From an uncultured Candidatus Saccharibacteria bacterium (GTDB lineage: Bacteria; Patescibacteriota; Minisyncoccia; Minisyncoccales; JANBVM01), in contig CAYVDD010000001.1 of assembly GCA_964450805.1 (NCBI GenBank), positions 134,595 to 198,594 of the forward strand: DNA of 64,000 bases, written 5' to 3'. The translations under genes and the position numbers were made by a program. The notes under the pieces are model-generated. The model was not told the origin of the DNA and searched no databases. It worked only from the letters and a program-made list of their open reading frames with translations. Shown piece by piece: positions 1 through 60,855 of the stretch (position 1 is its first letter; each line of letters begins with the position of its first letter).

Positions 1-257
1 AGATTTCAATTGTTGATAGAAATGTTTTAAGGCTTGGGATTTATGAATTGCTCTATGAGGATGAGAAAGCTGTTCCTCCGAAAGTAGCTATCAATGAGGC
101 AATTGAACTGGCAAAATCTTTTGGTGGAGAGAATTCAGGCAAGTTTGTTAATGGGGTCCTGGGAACGGTTTATAAAAACCTTCCAAACCACGAAGAGAGT
201 AAAGAAAAACAAAAAGCCTCTTCTGTTAAAGCTTCGAAGAACAGAAAAAATAAATAA
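1..257 (+). CDS. nusB: Transcription antitermination factor NusB, C-terminal part (5' end lies outside the window)
   Basis: Frame is open from base 3. Translation [56 protein letters not shown] matches the conserved NusB C-terminal helices and is followed by a K-rich tail. Confidence 0.85.
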
Positions 258-957: not shown

Positions 958-1458
958 ATGTTAGTTATTAGATTATTTAGAGTAGGTAAAAAAAATCAGC
1001 CAGCATTTAAAATTGTTGTAACAGATAAGAAAAATCCTCCTAAAAGCGGTCGTTTTGTTGAAGAGGTTGGTTTTTGGAATCCTTTGATCAAACAAAAAAT
1101 TCTTAAAAGAGACAGAATTAAATATTGGTTGTCTGTTGGAGCACAGCCTTCAGGAACAATTCATAACTTATTGGTTTCAGAGAAGATTATTGAAGGTGAA
1201 AAAATATCAAAGCACAAAAAGCCGAAGAAGAAAGAAGAGAAGAAAGAAGAAGCTCCTGCTGGCGCTAAGCCTAAGGAGGGAGATGAGAAAAAGGAAGAAG
1301 TGAAAAAAGCAGAGGAACCAGAAAAGATAGAATCAAAAGAGGAGAAAAAAGAAACTGCAGTTCCTGTTGAAGAAAAGCCTATAACCGAAGCTAAAGAAGA
1401 AAAAGAAGTAAAAACTGAAGAGATTAAAGAAGAGAAGCCAGAGAAAAATGTTTATTAA
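958..1458 (+). CDS. rpsP: 30S ribosomal protein S16 with a long K/E-rich C-terminal extension
   Basis: N-terminus MLVIRLFRVGKKNQPAFKIVVTDKKNPPKSGRFVEEVGFWNP is canonical S16. An ~85-aa low-complexity KE tail follows. Confidence 0.9.
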   Translation: MLVIRLFRVGKKNQPAFKIVVTDKKNPPKSGRFVEEVGFWNPLIKQKILKRDRIKYWLSVGAQPSGTIHNLLVSEKIIEGEKISKHKKPKKKEEKKEEAPAGAKPKEGDEKKEEVKKAEEPEKIESKEEKKETAVPVEEKPITEAKEEKEVKTEEIKEEKPEKNVY

Positions 1459-1462
1459 GAGC

Positions 1463-1491
1463 TTGACAAATTCAGAATACTTTGTTATAAT
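1463..1491 (+). promoter_or_regulatory. Consensus sigma70-type promoter P1 (TTGACA-17-TATAAT with a TGn extended -10)
   Basis: TTGACA at 1463-1468, a 17-nt spacer, tgtTATAAT ending at 1491, followed by TTAGATATT. Confidence 0.7.
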
Positions 1492-1526
1492 TTAGATATT
1501 GATAGATTAGGATAAAAAACCGGAAC

Positions 1527-1555
1527 TTGACAAATCTATTTTCTGATGCTATAAT
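1527..1555 (+). promoter_or_regulatory. Consensus sigma70-type promoter P2, a tandem copy of P1 64 bp downstream
   Basis: TTGACA at 1527-1532, a 17-nt spacer, tgcTATAAT ending at 1555, then the same TTAGATATT as P1. Confidence 0.7.
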
Positions 1556-2069
1556 TTAGATATTAAAACTTAATAATAAAAAAGGAGAGAGTTAGTTGAT
1601 TGATTTAATTAATCAACTGCAAACGGCTCTCTTTAAAGGGTCGTTTGTCAGTTTAAGAATATGAGTACATAAAAATTTACCTTTCTTAATTACTCTCTGG
1701 AGCTGGTGAAAACTGGTGAAAGAGGGAGAGAGAGGAATGAAGGAGAGAGAAAAAAATTTTTCTGGAGATGCGGAGTGAAAACTTCCGTGATCTGGTGAAT
1801 AAAAGGATTTTTTGAAAAATGAGAAAACAGGGATATTGTTTAGAATTAAAAAATTAAAATTAGCCCGGAAGTTTTCTCAAAAATGTTTTCCTTCATTCCT
1901 TTCTCTATTATCCTTTGAAACTTAAAAAGTGAAGAAGGATGAGAAGAAAATAGTTATTTGTTATTTTAGATTTTTCAAATTTCTCGAGTCTATTTTTACT
2001 CGAGAGGTTTGAGCAGAAACGAAAGAAAAAACCGTTTCTGCTTACTAAAAAATAGGGAAAGAGACGATA

Positions 2070-2130
2070 CCTCAAATTGTTTTTAATCTGTTTATCAAAT
2101 TATAATAGGTAGATTAAAAACAATTTGAGG
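2070..2130 (+). promoter_or_regulatory. Perfect 20-bp hairpin whose 3' arm contains the GAGG Shine-Dalgarno of the ORF starting at 2138
   Basis: cctcaaattgtttttaatct (2070-2089) is the exact reverse complement of agattaaaaacaatttgagg (2111-2130). The loop is 21 nt. The ATG lies 8 nt after the stem. Confidence 0.55.
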
Positions 2131-2137
2131 AAAAAAA

Positions 2138-2398
2138 ATGGTTGTTATTATTAAGAATGTTTATAACTATCTTGATCCATTTACACATGGGATCAAGGAT
2201 TCCTTAGGATTAGGAAAAGAGGAGGAGTCGTCATGTTATTTTTGTGATGACGATAACTCCCTTGTGACTCTTCAGACGATCGCGGTCCGCCGCGAATGTT
2301 TTGAAGATAATGTTCTCCTTTATAAAGAGGACATACGTGTTCGTGTCTGTGCCGAACATGCAGAAATCTTAAGGAAAGGAAAAGAAATAGTTTTATAA
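2138..2398 (+). CDS. Hypothetical small Cys-containing protein (86 aa)
   Basis: ATG is preceded by GAGG. This is the only non-overlapping ORF in the 2.7-kb insert. It contains CYFC...C...C..H residues and a locally G+C-richer stretch (acgatcgcggtccgccgcgaatg, 2276-2298). I recognise no family. Confidence 0.4.
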   Translation: MVVIIKNVYNYLDPFTHGIKDSLGLGKEEESSCYFCDDDNSLVTLQTIAVRRECFEDNVLLYKEDIRVRVCAEHAEILRKGKEIVL

Positions 2399-2572
2399 AC
2401 TTATTTCTTTTCTTTGTGGGTATCTCGCCCTCCTTCCAGGAGTGCCCACGATAGAAAAAAGCGAAAGAAATTTATCCCCAAAGGATAGCCAAGCCGGAGG
2501 GGAGGGAGTTTTAAAAGATTCTCCTTTATTAAAGAAAAATCTTATTTTTCTTGAACTCATTTCTTTTATTGC

Positions 2573-2631
2573 ATTAAATAACTGCGAAGTAAATTTAACA
2601 GTATAAGAGAAGTGGGTTCAAGGTGAGATTA
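2573..2631 (+). repeat. Copy 1 of a ~50-nt conserved motif (tgcgaRgtaaatttaacag-N6-gagaagtggRttcaaggtgagRtt)
   Basis: attaaataactgcgaagtaaatttaacagtataagagaagtgggttcaaggtgagatt. Confidence 0.8.
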
Positions 2632-2765
2632 GTAAAACCAACTCTGCTTTAAGTGAGGCAGAGGGAGTTCATTGATAAAAATAAAAAATGAAACTAAATC
2701 TAAAACGATTAGGCTTGTTCGATGTAATCTGAATTTCAGCTTAGAAAGCATTGATAGAGATGAGC

Positions 2766-2823
2766 GTTAAATAACTGCGAGGTAAATTTAACAGGACGAG
2801 AGAAGTGGATTCAAGGTGAGGTT
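2766..2823 (+). repeat. Copy 2 of the ~50-nt conserved motif
   Basis: gttaaataactgcgaggtaaatttaacaggacgagagaagtggattcaaggtgaggtt. Confidence 0.8.
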
Positions 2824-3710
2824 CAAGGACTTGTTTAAATTAAAAATCCTTTGATGTGCCTTGATAAATTAAAAAAATCTTTGATTTATTATGGGTGCTT
2901 TGTTTATTAATTATTTAGTGGATAGAGTACCTATAAAGTGTTTCTAGGAAGACAAGAAAGAAGTATGCAGGGGCTTAATTTGTTTATCAAAAATTGGTAG
3001 TCAGATTAAGCCTCTGCATTAGAAAAGCAGCGGTTACTGATTTCTCTTTTGGGTGAAATTCCCTTAGGAGAGAGATGAAAGAAGGTGGACAACCCGCCTT
3101 AGGAGAAATTCCGAAGCCGCTATTGGCAGTTAAATAAAAGGTGAAGCGTTGAATGAAAAAACTAATTAATGCTGCATCAGAATATAACAGATATATGTAT
3201 ATTTTATATCTGATGCAAAAAAGTACTTGTTTCAGTTTTTCTGTGAAAGGAAGAAGGTTAGAAAAGTTTAACCTGCTTCTTTCCGGAAGAATGGAGAGGA
3301 TAAGAAAGCGAGCAGGAAAAGTTATTAGGGAGGGAGACTTCGGCTCTCCCAACATGAATACTGGACATTTCGTACAGTATGAAAAGTTTCTTTTAGACGT
3401 TTCGTCACTAGGGGAAATACGAATAATTAGCGAGAGTGAGAGACTTTTAATTTCAATCTCGAAAGAATTTTCTTCTCGCCATTTAATGGTGGGGGAGAAA
3501 ATTTTAGAAGAGATCAAGATTAAAACTTTTTTCCTCCCAGAAGAGATTTTTCTGGGGTCAAAAAAGGTTTTTCCTCCATAAATTTATTGATGCTAGGTCT
3601 AGATCCGGAGGGGAGGACGCGCCCGATGATGGTGATGACAAAGGCTAATTTTCTTTTTTTTTATTAAAAAGGGATAAGGAACTTCATCGTTTCTTATCCC
3701 GTCCTTTCTT

Positions 3711-3766
3711 GAATGATTGCGAAGTAAATTTAACAGGACGAGAGAAGTGGATTCAAGGTGAGGTTA
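3711..3766 (+). repeat. Copy 3 of the ~50-nt conserved motif
   Basis: gaatgattgcgaagtaaatttaacaggacgagagaagtggattcaaggtgaggtta. It is identical to copy 2 over the 3' ~42 nt apart from one A/G change in gcgaRgt. A partial aaggtgaggtt recurs at about 3817-3827. Confidence 0.8.
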
Positions 3767-4012
3767 GACGTTTTCTGTTTTTTCCTAGGTTGTAAAAACT
3801 TTTACGATTTGGAAAAAGGTGAGGTTTAAATAGTCGTTATAAGGCTGTGAGTCAGGTTGGTTTAATTATTTGGTCGGGGATACAGTGTTAACTGTCCCTG
3901 ATTCGAAAGGAGAGGGGACAGATTGGAAAAATCTCTCTCCTCTAACATTGTTCCTTGATTTATATATTTTTAACCACTGATTCACAGTCTTATGACGAGT
4001 ATAAGAAAAGAT

Positions 4013-4040
4013 TTGACAAAAACTCTAAAATCATTAAAAT
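4013..4040 (+). promoter_or_regulatory. Putative promoter of khpA-trmD
   Basis: TTGACA at 4013-4018, a 16-nt spacer, TAAAAT at 4035-4040, followed by TTTAGACA as at other promoters in the window. Confidence 0.5.
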
Positions 4041-4148
4041 TTTAGACAAGTAGCAAATATATCTGTTTGGCCGATGCTCCGAACGATTGATGGAGAAGTA
4101 GGCTGAAAGGTCGGGCTACTGAAAGAAAAATTTTTACTGATTGATAAC

Positions 4149-4463
4149 ATGGCAAAATCAAGTGATCAAGACTTTCTTGAGTTTATTGTTAAAGCCTTAG
4201 TTGATAACCCAGATGATGTTAAAGTTGACCGCAAGGTTGATGAAATGGGAGTTTTACTTTCTTTAAAAGTAAACCCTGAAGACATGGGTCAAATCATTGG
4301 TAAGGCTGGATCTACTGCTCGAGCTATTAGGAATCTGGTTAGAATTGTTGGTCTTAAAAATCACGCTAGAGTGAATTTAAAGATCGAAGAGCCAGAAGGG
4401 TCTCGCGCTCAAGGAAGAAAATCTCCACCAGCTGGAGAAGAACTTAGTGATTTAAAATTGTAA
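4149..4463 (+). CDS. khpA: KH-domain RNA-binding protein (YlqC/KhpA-like)
   Basis: Has the KH GxxG core IIGKAGSTARAIRNLV. Its position between rpsP and trmD matches Firmicute-type operons. Confidence 0.8.
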   Translation: MAKSSDQDFLEFIVKALVDNPDDVKVDRKVDEMGVLLSLKVNPEDMGQIIGKAGSTARAIRNLVRIVGLKNHARVNLKIEEPEGSRAQGRKSPPAGEELSDLKL

Positions 4464-4531: not shown

Positions 4532-5230
4532 ATGATTAAATTCAATATTATTACAATTTTTCCAGAGCTCTTTGATTCTTATTTTAAGAGCAGTTTGATT
4601 AATAGGGCTTTAAAAAAGAAGCTTATAAAAATTAAAACTCATAATTTAAGAAAATGGACTACTGACAAACACCAGACTGTTGATGACAAGCCTTATGGCG
4701 GGGGATTGGGCATGGTTTTTAAAGTTGAGCCAATTTTTAAAGCTGTAAAGGAAATTTTAAAAAAATCAAAAAGTAAAAAAAGAAAAATCATTCTTTTTAC
4801 GCCTCGTGGAAAAAAGTTTAACCAGAAATTAGCCTATAACTTATCTAAACTTAATGAGATTATTATGATTTGCGGACGTTACGAAGGGGTTGATGAAAGA
4901 GTGGCAAAACACATTGCTGATATAGAATTGTCTATAGGGGATTATGATTTAATGGGAGGGGAGTTACCAGCAATGGTTGTTATTGAAACTGTTTCAAGAT
5001 TAATTCCTGGGGTTTTAGGGAAACCTCAGTTTTTAAAAGAAAGAACCACAAAAGACAAAGTATTTATTGAATATCCTCAATATACAAGGCCTGAAATTTT
5101 TCAACCAAAAAACAGAATAAAATTGAAAAGCCCTAAAAAATGGAAAACTCCAAAAGTTTTAATTTCAGGAAATCACAAAGAAATTGAAAAGTGGAGAGAA
5201 AAACATAAGAAGAAAATAGGTGGAAAATAG
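4532..5230 (+). CDS. trmD: tRNA (guanine37-N1)-methyltransferase
   Basis: MIKFNIITIFPELFDSYF...DDKPYGGGLGMV...CGRYEGVDERV...SIGDYDLMGGELPAMVVIE are typical TrmD motifs. Confidence 0.92.
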   Translation: MIKFNIITIFPELFDSYFKSSLINRALKKKLIKIKTHNLRKWTTDKHQTVDDKPYGGGLGMVFKVEPIFKAVKEILKKSKSKKRKIILFTPRGKKFNQKLAYNLSKLNEIIMICGRYEGVDERVAKHIADIELSIGDYDLMGGELPAMVVIETVSRLIPGVLGKPQFLKERTTKDKVFIEYPQYTRPEIFQPKNRIKLKSPKKWKTPKVLISGNHKEIEKWREKHKKKIGGK

Positions 5231-5630: not shown

Positions 5631-6119
5631 ATGGACAAAAAACATTATCTTCATGAAGTCGCAATTACAGCTATTATTGTAAAGGATGGAAAATATTTAA
5701 TTACCAGAAGATCGCCAAAAAAAAGGAGGTTTCCAAGAATGTGGACAGTACCAGGAGGGAAGATGGAGACAAGCGATTATTTACAATTACCAAAAGACAC
5801 GAAGTATTACTGGTATAATGTTCTGGAGCGTACATTACGAAGAGAAATCAGAGAAGAAGTAGGGATTGAGGTTGATAATATTGAATATGTGACAAGTTTA
5901 GCAATGGTTCACACTGATGGAAATCCATCACTCGTAATCTCTTGTATGGCAGATTATATTTCAGGTGATATTAAGCTTCAGGAAGATGAGTTGGATCATT
6001 ATGCCTGGGTGAGCTTAGAAGAAGCGAAAAATTACCAACTTATTGATGGAATTCATGATGAGCTTGCTATGGCCGAACGAATACGGAAAGGTGAAAAGAT
6101 ACAGTGGAGAAGATTTTGA
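5631..6119 (+). CDS. NUDIX hydrolase
   Basis: Nudix box-like GGKMET...LRREIREEVGIE. Confidence 0.75.
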   Translation: MDKKHYLHEVAITAIIVKDGKYLITRRSPKKRRFPRMWTVPGGKMETSDYLQLPKDTKYYWYNVLERTLRREIREEVGIEVDNIEYVTSLAMVHTDGNPSLVISCMADYISGDIKLQEDELDHYAWVSLEEAKNYQLIDGIHDELAMAERIRKGEKIQWRRF

Positions 6120-8758: not shown

Positions 8759-10369
8759 ATGAGTAATAAAAAAATCATTGGAATTATAGTTATTGTCCCT
8801 TTGTTAATAATTATTGCTTCTAGAACTATTTTTAAAAAATCAGAAGATGGTTTTGTTTTTGCTGAAGTAAGAATTGGAAATGTAGTTTATGAAATTTCAG
8901 AAACTGGTCAAGTTAAAAAAGGAGAACAAATTGAGCTTGGTTTTAAAACTTCAGGAATTATTGAAAGTATTTATGTTGGAATAGGTGAGGAGGTTAAATC
9001 AGGAGATATCTTGGCAAAACTAGAAAACACTCAGTTAAATATTCAATATACAGAAGCAGAGGCTAATTTAGAATTGTATCAGGCACAGCTTGATAAGTTG
9101 CTGGCTGGTGCAACTCAAGAAGAAATTCAAATTAAACAAACTGCTGTTGACAATGCTCAGATTGCCCTGAACACTGCTAAACAGAATTTAGAGGATATTA
9201 AAGCTCAAGGAGAAGAGGATTTAAATGCTGCTTATGAAGATGCTTTAAATGTTTTAGATGATTCATATTTAAAGATTTCCAATGCTTTTAATTTAGTTGA
9301 TTTAGTTCAAAGAACTTATTTTACAGCAAGCGATCCAGAGTCACTAATTGTCAGAGAGAGTGAAGATAAAATAGAAGACTCTCTGGATTTAATTGAGCCG
9401 TATTTGGATACAGCTGAAGATACTCAGGCAGATCAGGATATTGATACAGCTTTAACTCAGATTAAAACATCTTTAAACAATACTGCTGATGCTTTAAAAA
9501 CAGTAAGAGATGCTTGTGAAACAGCAAGTTATGAAAATATAGTTTCTTCTGCTGATAAATCTTCTTTAGATACTCACAGAGGACATGTTAATACTGCCTT
9601 AACAAATACTGTAAATTCTCAACAAACCATCTCTTCAACTAAATTAGATAATAGTGTTAATATTAATACTTATCAGGCTGAAGTTGATACAGAAGAGGGT
9701 GATTTAAAAGCAGCCGAGGATGATTTAGCTAAACTTGTTGCTCCTGCAAGACAAGAAGATGTCAATTTGAATAAGGCCCAGGTAAAACAAGCACAAGCAC
9801 AGGTCTGGCTTTTACAGAATCAAATTGCAGATACTAAACTTAAAAGTCCAGTTGATGGACAGATTATTAAAATTGAAAAAAGAATAGGGGAGTTGGTCCA
9901 GTCAGCTTTAAAAGACAGTGTAATAACTATTCTTCCTGCTGACCCTTATAAAATAGAAGTTGATATTTACGAAGAAGATGTTGCTAAGATGTCTGTAAAT
10001 AATCCAGTTGATATTTCTTTGATTGCTTTTCCTGACCAGGTTTTAACAGGAAAAGTAATTTCAATTGATCCTGCTGAGAAAATAATAGATGGAGTTGTTT
10101 ATTATGAGGTTTCCATTTCCCTGGATGATTTGTATGAAGGGATTAAGCCAGGTATGACTGCTGACTTAGTTATCAGGACTGATTTCAAAGAAAATGTTTT
10201 AACTGTTCCGGAAAAAGCAGTGAAAAAAAAGGATGGCAGGACAATAGTTCAGGTTTTAGAACAGAATAAGACTGTGGAGCGTGAAATAGAGATTGGCCTT
10301 AAAGGAACTAATAATCTTGTAGAAGTTGTTTCTGGGCTTGAGCAGGGTGAGCAAGTTATTTTACCTTAA
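8759..10369 (+). CDS. HlyD/MacA-type periplasmic adaptor (membrane fusion protein) of an ABC efflux system
   Basis: N-terminal TM helix, lipoyl-like GDILAKLE, a long coiled coil, a C-terminal beta-barrel, and translational abutment to the ABC ATPase gene. Confidence 0.8.
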   Translation: MSNKKIIGIIVIVPLLIIIASRTIFKKSEDGFVFAEVRIGNVVYEISETGQVKKGEQIELGFKTSGIIESIYVGIGEEVKSGDILAKLENTQLNIQYTEAEANLELYQAQLDKLLAGATQEEIQIKQTAVDNAQIALNTAKQNLEDIKAQGEEDLNAAYEDALNVLDDSYLKISNAFNLVDLVQRTYFTASDPESLIVRESEDKIEDSLDLIEPYLDTAEDTQADQDIDTALTQIKTSLNNTADALKTVRDACETASYENIVSSADKSSLDTHRGHVNTALTNTVNSQQTISSTKLDNSVNINTYQAEVDTEEGDLKAAEDDLAKLVAPARQEDVNLNKAQVKQAQAQVWLLQNQIADTKLKSPVDGQIIKIEKRIGELVQSALKDSVITILPADPYKIEVDIYEEDVAKMSVNNPVDISLIAFPDQVLTGKVISIDPAEKIIDGVVYYEVSISLDDLYEGIKPGMTADLVIRTDFKENVLTVPEKAVKKKDGRTIVQVLEQNKTVEREIEIGLKGTNNLVEVVSGLEQGEQVILP

Positions 10370-12383: not shown

Positions 12384-12412
12384 TTGACAAATCTAAAATA
12401 GTATTATATACT
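12384..12412 (+). promoter_or_regulatory. Putative promoter (TTGACA-17-TATACT)
   Basis: cTTGACAAATCT... shares the CTTGACAAAT start with P1 and P2 at 1462 and 1526, and is followed by TTAGAC. Confidence 0.5.
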
Positions 12413-12452
12413 TAGACTGTTCTTTTCAAAATAATTATAAGAGGTAAATAAA

Positions 12453-12704
12453 ATGTTAAGAGGTCATTGCTCTTTATGTATGGATGAAGGAGAAATCGGA
12501 GGGTGTCCGAAATGTGGACTCTGGCCGATGCCTCCTGAAAAAGAAATAAATGGTGAGGTCTATACCTTCTTTAGAAACGTAGAAAGGAAGAAAAAAGACC
12601 TCTATGAAGATCAAGATGAATATATAATCCTTGACGATGCAAGGAGTATATATAATGACCCTCTTCCAAACGATGTATCTGTTTGGAGGAAGAAAAAATT
12701 TTAA
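12453..12704 (+). CDS. Hypothetical small zinc-ribbon protein (83 aa)
   Basis: CSLC-x8-CPKC near the N-terminus and AGAGG 8 nt upstream of the ATG. It has its own promoter and terminator. Confidence 0.5.
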   Translation: MLRGHCSLCMDEGEIGGCPKCGLWPMPPEKEINGEVYTFFRNVERKKKDLYEDQDEYIILDDARSIYNDPLPNDVSVWRKKKF

Positions 12705-12817
12705 ATTTAATAATTTTTTATTTAATTTTTTTATTTTACTTATCTATTTGAGCATTCTAAAGATAATTAGAATATTCAAATAGGTTTATCTAAAAGTAAA
12801 ATAGAAAAAGTTGAATC

Positions 12818-12866
12818 AAAAACTGTCTACTTTCACCAGCTGGCGAACTAGGCAGTTTTTGTTTTG
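12818..12866 (+). terminator. Rho-independent terminator
   Basis: aactgtcta (12821-12829) pairs with taggcagtt (12849-12857), 9 bp including 1 GU, followed by tttttgtttt. Confidence 0.6.
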
Positions 12867-12931
12867 ACTTTAATTTTTCACAAATATATTTTAAGATAAG
12901 AATATAATAAATAATATGGATACTTAAATAT

Positions 12932-13234
12932 ATGTATTTTCAAATTTTAATCGCAGGATTTGGTGGGGGAGTTGTGAGAGGATTAACCGGTTTTATTAAA
13001 CATCAGTTTGCTTATAAGAATGTGCCATTTAAAGTAAGCTATTTTTTAGGCACAGTAATAATCTCTGGAATAATAGGATTCTTATCAGCCTCTGCAGTAC
13101 AAAATATTGGTTTTAGTCTAGAGGGTATGTTTACTCCAGCCTTAAGTTTTATTGTTGGTTATGCTGGAGGAGATTTTATTGAAAACATTTATAAGATACT
13201 TATTAAAAAATCCTCATTATATCCTGACAATTAA
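12932..13234 (+). CDS. Hypothetical membrane protein, translationally coupled to pcm
   Basis: 100 aa, glycine-rich with hydrophobic helices. Its stop abuts the pcm ATG. Confidence 0.5.
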   Translation: MYFQILIAGFGGGVVRGLTGFIKHQFAYKNVPFKVSYFLGTVIISGIIGFLSASAVQNIGFSLEGMFTPALSFIVGYAGGDFIENIYKILIKKSSLYPDN

Positions 13235-56844: not shown

Positions 56845-56985
56845 TAGATGAACTTATTTTTTTTATTAAACTTGTATATAAAAAAGGTTCTAACTTTGTC
56901 CAATCCCGAAGTTATTTTGCCCAAATAATTGATATTGACAAATATAAGAATATAATTATAATAATAGATAATTCTTTAACAAAAA

Positions 56986-57927: not shown

Positions 57928-60855
57928 ATGGACTCATCATTACTCAATAATTTAAATCAACAGCAGAAACAAGCGGTTATTCATGACAAAGGACCGCTTT
58001 TAATTGTAGCAGGAGCTGGGACAGGTAAAACCACAGCTATTACAAAAAGAATTGCTTATTTGATTGAGCAAAAAAAAGCTAAACCAGAAGAAATTCTAGC
58101 AGTTACTTTTACTGATAAAGCAGCTGGTGAAATGGAAGAAAGAGTGGACAGGCTGCTGCCTTATGGATATATAGATTTGTGGATATCAACTTTTCACTCT
58201 TTTTGCGAGAGAATCTTAAGAGAACATGCTTTAGATATTGGTCTGTCAACTGATTTTAAATTATTAGACCCTACAACAGCCTGGATGCTGATTAACCAGA
58301 ACTTAGAAAAGTTTAACCTTAATTATTATCGTCCCTTGGGAAACCAAACCAAGTTTATCCATGCTTTAATAAGTCATTTTTCCCGCTGTAAAGACCAGGG
58401 TATTTATCCCCAAGATTATTTAAAATATGCAGATAGTTTGAAAACTAATCTTACTGATTTAAAAGAATCCAAGGAAACAGAAAGATTAAAAGAAGTGGCT
58501 GGAGCTTATCATGTTTATCAAAGGCTGCTTTTGGAAAACAATTCTTTGGATTTTGGAGACTTGATTAATTATTGCTTAAAGCTGTTCCAGGACAGACCTC
58601 TTATTTTAGACAAATTCAGAAATAAGTTTAAATACATTCTGGTTGATGAGTTTCAGGATACTAACTGGGCTCAATATGAATTAATTAAATTATTAGCTTT
58701 GCCTGAAAATAATCTTACGGTTTGCGCTGACGATGACCAGGCAATTTATAGATGGAGAGGCGCTTCTTATAACAACATTATTCAATTTCAAAAAAACTTT
58801 CCAAAAACAAAAGAAATTTTTTTAATTGAAAATTATCGTTCAACTCAAAACATATTAGATTTATCATATAAATTCATTAAAACTAATAACCCAAATCGTC
58901 TGGAATATATCAGTAAAATAAGTAAGAAATTAAAAGCTAATAAAACAGGCGAGGGGATTATAGAGCATTTACACTTTAAAGATTTATATGAAGAAACACA
59001 GGGAGTGATTAATAAAATTGCTGACATAGTTAAAGAAAATAAAGATGTTTGTTTTGGTGATTTTGCAATCTTAGTCAGGGCTAATAATCATGCCAATGCT
59101 TTTACCAGAGCTTTAGAAAGAGCTAACTTTCCTTATCAGTTCTTAGCATCCAGAGGATTGTATTCTAAAACAGTTATTTTAAATATAATTTCTTATTTCA
59201 AGCTCTTAGATGATTACCATGAAAGTCCTGCTTTATACAGAATTCTGAATCTTCCTTTCTTAAATATTCCAACAAAAGATATTGCAAAGATCAACCAGTA
59301 TGCCAAGCGTAAAACAAAATCTTTATACGAAGCTTTAAATGAGCTTCCCCTCATACACGGTGTTTCTCCTTCATCTGGACAAGCAGTTAATTTGATATTA
59401 AGCCTGATTAAAAAACACACTGAATTATCTAAAAATAAAAATGTTTCAGAGGTTTTAGTTTCGTTTTTAAAAGATTCAGGTTATCTGAAATACTTATCAG
59501 GCAAAGAAAACAAACAGCAAATAGATTTAATCAATCAGTTTTATCAAAAAATAAAAAATTTTGAAGAAGTTAATATAGACGCTTCTCTTAAAAGCTTTAT
59601 GGAAAGTTTAAATATGGAGATTGAATCAGGTGAACAGGGTAAGATCAGTTTTGATATAGAGCAAGGTCCGGACATGATCCGGGTTATGACCATTCATTCA
59701 GCTAAAGGTCTGGAGTTTAAGTATGTGTTTTTAGTTAATCTGGTTGACAGAAGATTTCCAACTTCACAACGTAAAGAACCGATTGAAATACCAGAAAATT
59801 TAATTAAAGAAATTATTCCAGAAGGTGATGTTCATTTAGAAGAAGAAAGAAGGCTTTGTTATGTAGCAATGACCAGAGCTAAAGAAAAATTATTTTTAAC
59901 TTCTGCTGATAATTATGGCGGAGTTAGAAAGAAAAAACCTTCCAGATTTTTAATGGAAATGGGTTTTATTAAAAAGGGCGATGAACTGATTGCAAAAAAT
60001 ATAGAGTCAGTTGCTGTGAGAAAACAGAAGAAAAAAATAACTGTTCCTTTAAATTTACCCCCTTATCTTTCATTCTCGCAAATAGCAGCTTTTGGAAAAT
60101 GTCCTTTGCAGTATAAATTTGCCCATATATTGAAAATTCCAATAAGAGGCAAGGCAGTGTTTTCATTTGGAAAAGCAATCCACAACACCTTATATGATTT
60201 TGTAAGACTGACTGACAGCGGAAAGAATGCTGTTCAGTCTGCTTTATTTGGAACAGATAAACAAAAAGAACAAAAAACAGGAAAAAAAGTTTTAAACCTG
60301 TCTGATTTAGTTGAATTGTATAAAAAAAACTGGATTGATGACTGGTATGAATCAAAAAACCAGAAACAAGAGTATTACAAATTAGGCCAGAAAATAATTA
60401 AAGATTTTTATGATAAATTTATTCAAGAACAACCTAAAATCTTCAGGATTAATAAAGAGCCAGCCTTAGAAGTACAGTTCAGATTTAAGACAGCTGGCAA
60501 CACCTTATTTGGCAAAATAGACAGAATAGATGAAATTAAAGATGGAATTGAAATAATAGATTATAAGACCGGGAAATACAAAGAAAAATTATCTTCTGAA
60601 GATAAACAACAGCTTTTAATCTATCAGATGGCAGCTGAACAGGCTTTGGGTTTGAAGCCTGTAAAACTTAGTTATTATTATTTAGAACAAGGCAAAAAAA
60701 CTTCATTTTTGGGAAGCGAGCAGGATAAAGAAAATCAAAAACAAGAGATAACAGCTATAGCTAAAAAGATAAAAAACAGCAGTTTTGATGCTAATCCAGG
60801 CTGGCAATGTAAATTTTGTGATTTTCAAGATATTTGTGATTATGCTCAGAAATAA
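57928..60855 (+). CDS. UvrD/PcrA/AddA-type ATP-dependent helicase fused to a C-terminal PD-(D/E)XK (Cas4/RecB-like) nuclease domain
   Basis: AGAGTGKT, VDEFQDTN, TIHSAKGLEF and YVAMTRAK helicase motifs. The C-terminus has CPLQYKF ... IDYKTGK ... CKFCDFQDIC (iron-sulfur-type Cys). Confidence 0.85.
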   Translation: MDSSLLNNLNQQQKQAVIHDKGPLLIVAGAGTGKTTAITKRIAYLIEQKKAKPEEILAVTFTDKAAGEMEERVDRLLPYGYIDLWISTFHSFCERILREHALDIGLSTDFKLLDPTTAWMLINQNLEKFNLNYYRPLGNQTKFIHALISHFSRCKDQGIYPQDYLKYADSLKTNLTDLKESKETERLKEVAGAYHVYQRLLLENNSLDFGDLINYCLKLFQDRPLILDKFRNKFKYILVDEFQDTNWAQYELIKLLALPENNLTVCADDDQAIYRWRGASYNNIIQFQKNFPKTKEIFLIENYRSTQNILDLSYKFIKTNNPNRLEYISKISKKLKANKTGEGIIEHLHFKDLYEETQGVINKIADIVKENKDVCFGDFAILVRANNHANAFTRALERANFPYQFLASRGLYSKTVILNIISYFKLLDDYHESPALYRILNLPFLNIPTKDIAKINQYAKRKTKSLYEALNELPLIHGVSPSSGQAVNLILSLIKKHTELSKNKNVSEVLVSFLKDSGYLKYLSGKENKQQIDLINQFYQKIKNFEEVNIDASLKSFMESLNMEIESGEQGKISFDIEQGPDMIRVMTIHSAKGLEFKYVFLVNLVDRRFPTSQRKEPIEIPENLIKEIIPEGDVHLEEERRLCYVAMTRAKEKLFLTSADNYGGVRKKKPSRFLMEMGFIKKGDELIAKNIESVAVRKQKKKITVPLNLPPYLSFSQIAAFGKCPLQYKFAHILKIPIRGKAVFSFGKAIHNTLYDFVRLTDSGKNAVQSALFGTDKQKEQKTGKKVLNLSDLVELYKKNWIDDWYESKNQKQEYYKLGQKIIKDFYDKFIQEQPKIFRINKEPALEVQFRFKTAGNTLFGKIDRIDEIKDGIEIIDYKTGKYKEKLSSEDKQQLLIYQMAAEQALGLKPVKLSYYYLEQGKKTSFLGSEQDKENQKQEITAIAKKIKNSSFDANPGWQCKFCDFQDICDYAQK

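Follow-up and report, generated by a model that had tools for sequence, protein, structure and literature searches.

The window analysed here, a 64-kb stretch of DNA taken at its full length, belongs to a densely coding, low-GC (36% GC) genome of about 636 kb from a Candidatus Nealsonbacteria-like member of the Patescibacteria, and our subject is the interval that separates two of its genes, rpsP and khpA. The gene rpsP (958-1458; Pfam S16) lies directly upstream of this interval and is preceded by rnc (272-955), two genes before the gap; khpA, which encodes a KhpA-type KH protein (4149-4463; Pfam KH_KhpA-B), lies directly downstream and is followed by trmD (4532-5230). Between the rpsP stop codon at 1458 and the khpA start codon at 4149 there are 2,690 nt, exactly the gap that had been given in an earlier note on this DNA, which took these 2.7 kb for one candidate locus of a large structured RNA, inserted into a tightly packed operon. 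The evidence presented below points instead to a recurrent variable island with conserved RNA motifs at both of its ends. Among the genomes compared, the complete genome CP179889.1 is closest, and its KH protein shares 95% identity with that of the window. The rpsP product of the window has a C-terminal tail of about 85 residues that is rich in lysine and glutamate and varies in length and sequence among relatives.

Promoters and leader RNA at the upstream end

Immediately past the rpsP stop codon, two perfect TTGACA-17-TGnTATAAT promoters with an extended -10 element stand in tandem on the + strand, at 1463-1491 (TTGACA-17-TGTTATAAT) and at 1527-1555 (TTGACA-17-TGCTATAAT). Both start with CTTGACAAAT and end with TATAATTTAGATATT, as had been described before from the same letters, and both are carried by a 64-nt tandem duplication (1459-1519/1523-1583). 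Perfect TTGACA-N16-18-TATAAT sites number 3 in the 64 kb, against 0.06 expected. The arrangement recurs among relatives: in nearly all of the 28 GTDB gaps examined (at least 420 nt long), a perfect or 11/12 TTGACA-16..18-TGnTATAAT promoter is found 3-180 nt past the rpsP stop.

Downstream of the promoters lies an RNA motif on the + strand, hereafter the island leader (1581-1650), which was detected with a covariance model, R2, trained on nine relatives only, with the window excluded. In the window, 1581-1650 is the top match, with 40.9 bits and an E-value of about 2e-6, a rough figure owing to short calibration, and the runner-up reaches 15.9 bits. The same motif was found in about 20 loci, after the first promoter and always between rpsP and khpA, including L091 (3946-4016), L008 (4066-4139), L095 (6-71), L087 (56-121) and about 15 more. 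Its consensus in relatives consists of GGAGAGAG, an A/U-rich stretch that often contains UUGAC, a GC-rich hairpin (GGCGRCUCUCUCC-loop-GAGAGYCGCC) and, usually, a U-rich stretch. In the window, the layout begins with AGGAGAGAG (region 1), continues with an inserted hairpin (1594-1618) and ends with hairpin H (1620-1630 with 1638-1648), which here has 11 bp including 2 G.U pairs and is followed by the tail GUCAGUUUAAG. The 5' arm of hairpin H, CUCUCU, is able to pair with region 1 instead, and this alternative pairing of GGAGAGAG with CUCUCUCC, mutually exclusive with hairpin H, corresponds to the window helix 1586-1591/1627-1632. Two helices that had been listed separately before, 1586-1591/1627-1632 and 1594-1601/1611-1618, are thus both part of the island leader.

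Hairpin H is 95.5% paired over 19 loci and shows compensatory change in 6 of its 12 pairs, with far lower values in shuffled and slid controls. The features of an attenuator, namely a GC-rich hairpin, a U tract and a competing upstream pairing, are clear in relatives such as L091, L163 and L102. The layout of the island leader is that of a putative terminator/antiterminator switch, and we predict this function for it. A leader-peptide reading of GGAGAGAG was also considered and was rejected, as the 22-codon TTG ORF (open reading frame) at 1596-1664 has no counterpart at a fixed distance in relatives. At one locus, L091, a 301-aa ORF without a Pfam match (2841-3746, minus strand) lies between rpsP and the island promoter, divergent from the island; no other sizeable gene on the reverse strand was seen at an island front.

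The khpA promoter and leader RNA at the downstream end

At the opposite end of the gap, khpA has a near-perfect promoter of its own on the + strand, TTGACA-16-TAAAAT (4013-4040), which had gone unreported. Homology to the closest relative resumes exactly at 4013, the -35 box of this promoter. The khpA promoter is plainer than its upstream counterparts, stands 80-190 nt ahead of khpA and closes each GTDB gap examined. It is followed on the + strand by a conserved khpA leader RNA (4048-4121; model R1, 68 bits), which is composed of a P1 helix (AGUAGC/GCUACU), a covarying P2 hairpin and the invariant AAAGGUCG. The P2 hairpin displays 38 double-change cells, compared with 15.9 +/- 3.2 in shuffles, and of 147 distinct khpA leaders, 145 contain GGTCG. 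Model R1 gives one match per locus, always just upstream of khpA (for example, L006 6900-6973 and L008 6893-6965).

Rfam 15 holds no family that matches either the island leader or the khpA leader, in the window or in the islands of relatives. Likewise, no description of the khpA leader or of a rpsP-khpA island was found in the searchable literature; the S16 leader described there is a motif of Flavobacteria located ahead of rpsP. The khpA leader is a candidate autoregulatory site of the KH-domain RNA-binding protein. Even where no insert is present, rpsP and khpA are separated in this clade by a predicted terminator-promoter spacer, and khpA has its own promoter and leader.

A variable slot between rpsP and khpA

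To place the insert in a comparative context, we used 160 loci around khpA homologues, 80 from GTDB and 80 from metagenomes. In the 107 loci with both genes, the distance between rpsP and khpA ranges from 65 to 5,458 nt, with a median of 227 nt; it exceeds 400 nt in 48 loci and 2 kb in 17. The slot of the closest genome measures 202 nt and consists of a terminator hairpin, a TTGACA-16-TAAAAT promoter and the leader, and homology between this genome and the window is lost within the variable C-terminal tail of rpsP, about 10 nt short of the stop codon. When the insert was compared with the 160 loci by blastn and tblastx, 4013-4148 was the only extended matching part, and 1459-4012 remained unmatched except for two hairpin modules, about 35 nt long, in L091 and L088. 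Nearer metagenome relatives yielded a best match of 92% identity, on a 1.6-kb contig without upstream sequence.

Unrelated inserts of 0.4-5.5 kb fill the same slot in 45% of relatives, most of them with ORFs. Their cargo consists mostly of orphan small ORFs, several with paired CxxC motifs, and occasionally includes recognisable genes, among them alpha/beta hydrolases and a helix-turn-helix protein. In these islands, the spacers between ORFs are hairpin-dense (z -4 to -9), with z near 0 within ORFs. A hairpin module of 60-100 nt, TTCATRGCGGCG...CGCCGCTATGAA, was found in six loci, only inside the slot, always on the + strand and 23-116 nt upstream of orphan ORFs. Its positions are 4734-4795, 5656-5712 and 6254-6350 in L008; 2995, 4476 and 6045 in L056; 2258, 2915 and 5324 in L024; 5128 and 6099 in L027; 5065-5155 in L091; and 69 in L048. 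Some ORFs are also common to several islands at differing positions and, together with the shared modules, this indicates that the islands are mosaics. No recombinase domain was detected in 30 ORFs from the islands of relatives, nor in the adjacent genes rnc, rpsP, khpA and trmD. Pattern searches of viral contigs gave 29 hits for the hairpin module and 4 for the island leader, all of them without the second arm and attributable to chance.

A variable island of this kind is recognised by an extended -10 promoter less than about 200 nt past the rpsP stop, by the leader motif (GGAGAGAG followed by the covarying hairpin H) and, as its downstream bound, by the khpA promoter and leader. The window has the promoter at 1463-1491 and 1527-1555, the leader motif at 1581-1650 and the downstream bound at 4013-4040 and 4048-4121. 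A conserved large non-coding RNA (ncRNA), in turn, should have homologues with compensatory changes, and neither the 160 loci nor a repeat scan of metagenomes revealed any for the body of the insert. The proposal of one large structured RNA within a tight operon is therefore not supported, because the insert is absent or variable in relatives and the slot is only 202 nt long in the nearest one; the earlier note had itself named absence or variability in close relatives as grounds for giving the proposal up. What survives of it is the presence of structured RNA in 1459-4148, since the + strand is structured and conserved motifs are located at 1581-1650 and 4048-4121, although not as a conserved large RNA gene, as the body has no homologues. 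The earlier note had matched the insert to none of the RNase P, tmRNA, SRP, 6S and group II domain V signatures, and cmscan with Rfam 15 bore this out: at the gathering score it returned only tRNAs and n00280 elsewhere in the window, and no group I or II intron, ROOL, GOLLD, OLE, HEARO, riboswitch or self-cleaving ribozyme. At E <= 10, the region 1300-4300 gave only sub-threshold matches to miRNA-type hairpins, and so did the islands of relatives. A weak RT-6 match at 3979-4048 on the minus strand was discarded, since it is the TTGACA promoter read backwards.

Structure of the insert

Structure was scored in 150-nt windows against dinucleotide-preserving shuffles. On the + strand of the insert, the mean z-score is -3.0, with 45% of windows below -3; in the remaining 55 kb, the corresponding values are -0.3 and 2.9%. 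A span-limited global fold of the insert reaches -774 kcal/mol with 12 uninterrupted helices of at least 12 bp, compared with -447 to -535 kcal/mol and 1-3 such helices in five coding controls of equal length. The helix density of the insert is far beyond chance, which settles in its favour the concern that shuffled sequence of this composition might produce similar helices. The 11 helices listed in the earlier note all pair exactly as given, with seven G.T pairs and no mismatch.

From those seven pairs, all of them G.T on the + strand, it had been argued that selection acts on a + strand fold. Folding of the + strand is still favoured, but the wobble evidence is weaker than presented, for reasons of both search bias and base composition. 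The count was biased because only helices that tolerate G.T could be found, and a type-blind, low-stringency stem count gave 33 G.T versus 26 A.C. Moreover, in coding controls at 8760, 21900, 28810 and 37580, the + strand folds 20-25% more stably than the - strand and has 2-3 times more G.U pairs; a fifth control, at 57930, is nearly symmetric (+ strand 8% more stable, equal G.U counts). The + strand G.U excess in ordinary coding regions is an effect of base composition (G > C on the + strand), and arguments from G.U pairs on one strand only thus require a composition correction in this genome. After a per-strand composition control, the + strand of the insert remains more structured in 36 of 49 windows (Wilcoxon p = 1.5e-4; the windows overlap). 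Given this strand-asymmetric excess of structure and the strong promoters, transcription of the region into a folded + strand RNA is very probable.

The fold predicted for the insert consists of successive local hairpins and two domains of about 170-180 nt, and does not form one integrated architecture. The first domain, of 181 nt (1727-1907, +; -58.3 kcal/mol), has a closing helix of about 20 bp that encloses the 11-bp helix 1777-1787/1866-1876, and no homologue of it is known. The second, of 169 nt (3832-4000, +), is closed by a helix of 21-24 bp, and the fold over 3809-4029 reaches -83.9 kcal/mol. Between them, and all on the + strand, lie two adjacent hairpins, UCUCGAGU/ACUCGAGA and GCAGAAACG/CGUUUCUGC, with z of -6 to -7 (1975-2044); a terminator-like hairpin, seen as an inverted repeat and in the fold, that spans the stop codon of the small ORF86 described below and is followed by UUUG (2376-2415); a predicted hairpin of about 22 bp rich in G.U pairs (2889-2936); and a 12-bp hairpin with a U-rich tail, also terminator-like (3671-3700). 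The scoring window 2851-3000 has z of -5.5 on the + strand and +1.1 on the - strand.

Repeats and hairpin modules within the insert

A direct repeat of 55-60 nt, which had been missed before, is present in three + strand copies, at 2571-2630, 2764-2823 and 3706-3765, and a partial fourth copy of its 3' end is located at 3816-3838. Copy 1 is embedded in the 20-bp helix 2550-2569/2603-2622 (2550-2630; z = -5.6). Each copy forms a small hairpin with a GCGA tetraloop, and the few stem substitutions among copies are transitions that preserve pairing. No further copies occur elsewhere in the 64-kb window, and the repeat pattern gave 0 hits in metagenome contigs. Among the public short-read contigs (Logan) of the source sample, SRR14802572, L001 begins near window position 3736, inside copy 3, and L003 ends near 2811, inside copy 2; as contigs end inside these two copies, automated assemblies split the island into three pieces.

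A second element, module B, consists of a + strand hairpin of about 26-28 bp at 2070-2130, whose outer 20 bp are perfectly Watson-Crick paired, with G.U pairs and one mismatch near the loop, and a second + strand hairpin at 2965-3019, recognised both as a direct repeat and in the fold. The apical sequence TGTTTATCAAA..GGTAG..AGATT is common to 2070-2130, 2965-3019 and L091 4446-4500, the two window hairpins having their apical 30 nt in common, and the outer stems are unrelated between copies yet still paired.

Several known kinds of element were compared with the 55-60-nt repeat, and most were rejected. As a mobile or phage element it finds no backing, since a viral scan for TGCGARGTAAATTTAACAG returned two chance hits in a phage nuclease-like gene; in addition, the insert had no blastn match in phage and plasmid collections. 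The idea of a duplicated khpA leader arose from the L091/L088 leader hairpin B similarity (37 nt, 84% identity, E = 0.002) and from GAGAAGTRG, but model R1 has no hit at E <= 10 on 2571-2630, 2764-2823 or 3706-3765. An integron attC site is defined by R'' (RYYYAAC) ... R' (GTTRRRY) at the base of the hairpin; in the inner hairpin of the repeat, the order of the R''/R' boxes is reversed, and the base triplet reads GTT in copy 1 but ATT in the other two. A CRISPR or tandem interspersed guide RNA (TIGR) array is likewise not indicated, as TRF finds no array and the repeats are spaced by 193 and 942 nt; TIGR arrays have been mentioned for parasitic bacteria and are tandem arrays, unlike the insert. 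Finally, a dispersed palindromic element would be expected to have multiple copies with terminal inverted repeats and target-site duplications; no such duplications are seen at the hairpin flanks, and no dispersed copies occur in related loci or in the 64 kb covered, about a tenth of the genome.

Coding content of the insert

The insert contains one plausible small gene, ORF86 (2138-2398, +), an orphan with zinc-ribbon-like CxxC...CxxH spacing. Its codon score of 0.245 lies inside the range of real genes and above the 95th percentile of spurious ORFs, and its Shine-Dalgarno sequence, GAGG, forms the end of the 3' arm of the 2070-2130 hairpin, 7 nt ahead of the ATG. No homologue of ORF86 was found among 5.8e9 proteins, nor any Pfam or PHROG match. 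ORF142 (3153-3581, +) is a doubtful gene: its codon score of 0.13 is under the 5th percentile of real-gene chunks, its 3' half is densely paired (3428-3580), and both a search of 5.8e9 proteins and a full HMMER scan covering 1.84e9 representatives returned nothing but ORF142 itself. Single-sequence AlphaFold models were uninformative, with a pLDDT (predicted local distance difference test) of 36 for ORF86 and 37 for ORF142. The antisense ORF176 on the minus strand (2987-3517) has a noise-like codon score of -0.14 and is not coding. The earlier note had read 2138-2398 as the only plausible ORF and both larger frames as low-complexity sequence; for ORF176, the codon score bears this out.

Other features of the window

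Three features elsewhere in the window were recorded. At 12384-12950, a near-consensus promoter (TTGACAAATC...) stands ahead of an 83-codon ORF with two CxxC pairs (12454-12705), which is the same kind of small zinc-ribbon gene as those of the islands; the ORF-free stretch after it is strongly structured, with z down to -7.6 at 12700-12850. The third perfect promoter of the window, TTGACA-16-TATAAT at 56935-56962, precedes a TTG-initiated ORF of about 95 codons and sits in a 0.9-kb stretch without an ORF of at least 100 aa. The Rfam match to n00280 (RF03531; 71.4 bits, gathering level) at 59812-59913 falls inside a 975-aa ORF (57928-60855). RF03531 is a Clostridioides difficile 'sRNA included into helicase gene', and this match probably reflects conserved coding sequence.

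Interpretation and alternatives

Taken together, these results make it probable that this genome carries, in the interval, its own version of a variable island that recurs between rpsP and khpA in Nealsonbacteria-like Patescibacteria, and that the island is an accessory transcription unit gated by an attenuator, with hairpins acting in cis. The observed anatomy of the interval, its excess of structure, the absence of its body from relatives and the homology and covariation of both end motifs would be brought together by a separate + strand unit with a conserved front (the duplicated extended -10 promoter and the leader of about 70 nt) and a conserved back (the khpA promoter and leader). The body in between is genome-specific, with 2.35 kb of mostly non-coding, hairpin-dense RNA, ORF86, ORF142 and the tripled 55-60-nt element. 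Acting as a terminator/antiterminator switch, the leader may gate read-through from the strong promoters and from rpsP into this cargo. The long hairpins of the cargo could then act in cis on the transcript by processing and stabilising its segments and by controlling translation: stems of 20-28 bp are of the size cleaved by ribonuclease III (RNase III), rnc lies two genes upstream, and the 2070-2130 hairpin would hide the ribosome-binding site of ORF86. Attenuation, RNase III processing, translation of ORF86 and any benefit to the cell are all inferred.

A number of points weigh against this interpretation. The transcript, its 5' ends, its termination and its cleavage are all read from sequence, and the cargo could be decaying, functionless sequence. 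The alternative GGAGAGAG/CUCUCUCC pairing is 98% paired but invariant, and without covariation it is not independently proven; the window copy of the leader is divergent, with AGGG instead of GAGAG in the 3' arm of hairpin H and a weakly U-rich tail. Most of the cargo has no convincing ORF, unlike the islands of relatives, so that a role of the hairpins in serving ORFs explains only part of it. In addition, the repeat copies were counted within 64 kb of a genome of about 636 kb, and copies elsewhere are possible.

One alternative takes the cargo as the decaying remnant of an older gene-bearing island, with pseudogenised ORFs, surviving hairpins and duplicated palindromes, transcribed but without present function. 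The weak codon scores of ORF142 and most small ORFs, the repeats and partial repeats, the fact that only short hairpin modules are common with the gene-bearing L091 island, and the rapid turnover of content across the clade all fit such a history. We nevertheless regard it as rather unlikely, given that unconstrained decay at 36% GC should erode structure and the long helices are nearly perfect (0 mismatches in 11), that the excess of structure stays strand-asymmetric after the composition control, that the promoters are perfect, and that the genome, of about 0.64 Mb, is otherwise densely coding. Another alternative, that of the earlier note, takes the cargo (about 1650-4012) as one or a few novel, lineage-specific, functional large structured ncRNAs. 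The strong and significant + strand structure, the two strong promoters, the scarcity of ORFs and their orphan status, the GNRA tetraloop hairpin present three times with structure-preserving substitutions between copies, and the module B apical sequence, kept while its stems change, are in line with this view. It is quite unlikely, however: the cargo is missing from the closest relative and hence dispensable, the slot holds unrelated, ORF-bearing inserts in relatives, the fold breaks up mainly into independent hairpins, Rfam yields no match even at E <= 10, and with no homologue found covariation is untestable.

The arrangement of the repeats raises a different kind of explanation, in which the slot is an integron-like cassette platform that grows and is shuffled by site-specific recombination at hairpin repeats (the 55-60-nt element and the TTCATRGCGGCG hairpins), with a fixed promoter upstream. 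Same-orientation hairpin repeats, at spacings of 0.2-2.4 kb, do flank ORF-sized segments, genomes share modules and some ORFs as in a mosaic, a strong promoter is fixed at one end, and the two halves of the repeat resemble sequences at opposite ends of the L091 island. The matches behind this half-similarity, however, span 11-37 nt (E about 0.002), the tested island ORFs and adjacent genes included no recombinase, the repeats keep neither the order nor the conservation of the attC R''/R' boxes, with GTT not kept between copies, and the hairpins of relatives precede ORFs in the manner of elements of a 5' untranslated region, whereas an integron attC follows its ORF. We therefore judge this explanation highly unlikely. 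A bolder version, also decidedly improbable in our estimation, treats the slot as a riboregulated expression platform (strong promoter and attenuator leader) that captures and exchanges hairpin-bounded cassettes, integron-like but with no recognisable integrase, the cargo here being a functional structured RNA in place of protein genes.

The reading as an attenuator-gated variable island has several implications. An ORF desert dense in helices, even one that is statistically real, does not have to be a conserved RNA gene, and comparative context reclassifies this one as the cargo of a hypervariable islet. The analysis also defines two conserved structured RNA motifs outside Rfam 15, the khpA leader and the island leader. 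Ultra-small genomes of the candidate phyla radiation (about 0.64 Mb here) retain this hotspot, which is occupied in about 45% of relatives, carries mostly orphan cargo and is driven by a promoter among the strongest of the region; its retention suggests fast-evolving accessory functions, possibly linked to episymbiosis, that are worth their cost. Furthermore, the patchwork sharing of hairpin modules among otherwise unrelated islands raises the question of cargo exchange.

Comparison with known systems

Large ornate ncRNAs such as GOLLD, ROOL, OLE, HEARO and raiA form families that are kept across many genomes and have covarying multi-junction architectures. The insert is similar to them in its kilobase scale, scarcity of ORFs, strong structure and promoter-driven setting, but has neither relatives nor an Rfam match. 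Repetitive extragenic palindromic (REP) sequences, bacterial interspersed mosaic elements (BIME) and miniature inverted-repeat transposable elements (MITE) are also short hairpin-forming repeats that accumulate in intergenic DNA; unlike them, the three copies described here are confined, within the 64 kb, to the island, lack target-site duplications and have no dispersed counterparts in related loci. With integron arrays (Pc, attC, IntI), the island has in common a promoter at one end, imperfect hairpin repeats in the same orientation between cassette-sized segments and many orphan ORFs. It differs from them in having no integrase and no attC box signature, in that the hairpins of relatives precede ORFs, and in a G.U-tolerant pairing that points to RNA.

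In the early region of phage T7, the tandem strong promoters A1-A3 drive a transcript with RNase III hairpins between small genes. The tandem consensus promoters of the island, a predicted polycistronic RNA punctuated by hairpins of about 20 bp and the nearby rnc recall this organisation, although the island has no phage genes and no match in phage collections, and cleavage is here a prediction. Transcription attenuators and riboswitch platforms share with the island leader a GC-rich covarying hairpin with a U-rich stretch and an upstream segment that pairs with its 5' arm. Unlike them, the island leader matches no Rfam family, no ligand, leader peptide or binding protein is known for it, and in the window both its 3' arm and its tail are degenerate.

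Flexible genomic islets, or hypervariable regions at conserved chromosomal positions, have been described in streamlined marine bacteria and in many other genomes. The island resembles these in its conserved flanking genes, in a presence and content that vary among close relatives and in a cargo dominated by orphans. It differs from them in its very small size (0.4-5.5 kb), in its conserved front end of promoter and leader RNA, in the absence of an integrase or tRNA attachment site and, in the window, in a cargo of mostly non-coding hairpins. Among the systems compared, the insert would be best described as a variable genomic islet whose cargo is unusual in being dense in hairpins and largely non-coding.

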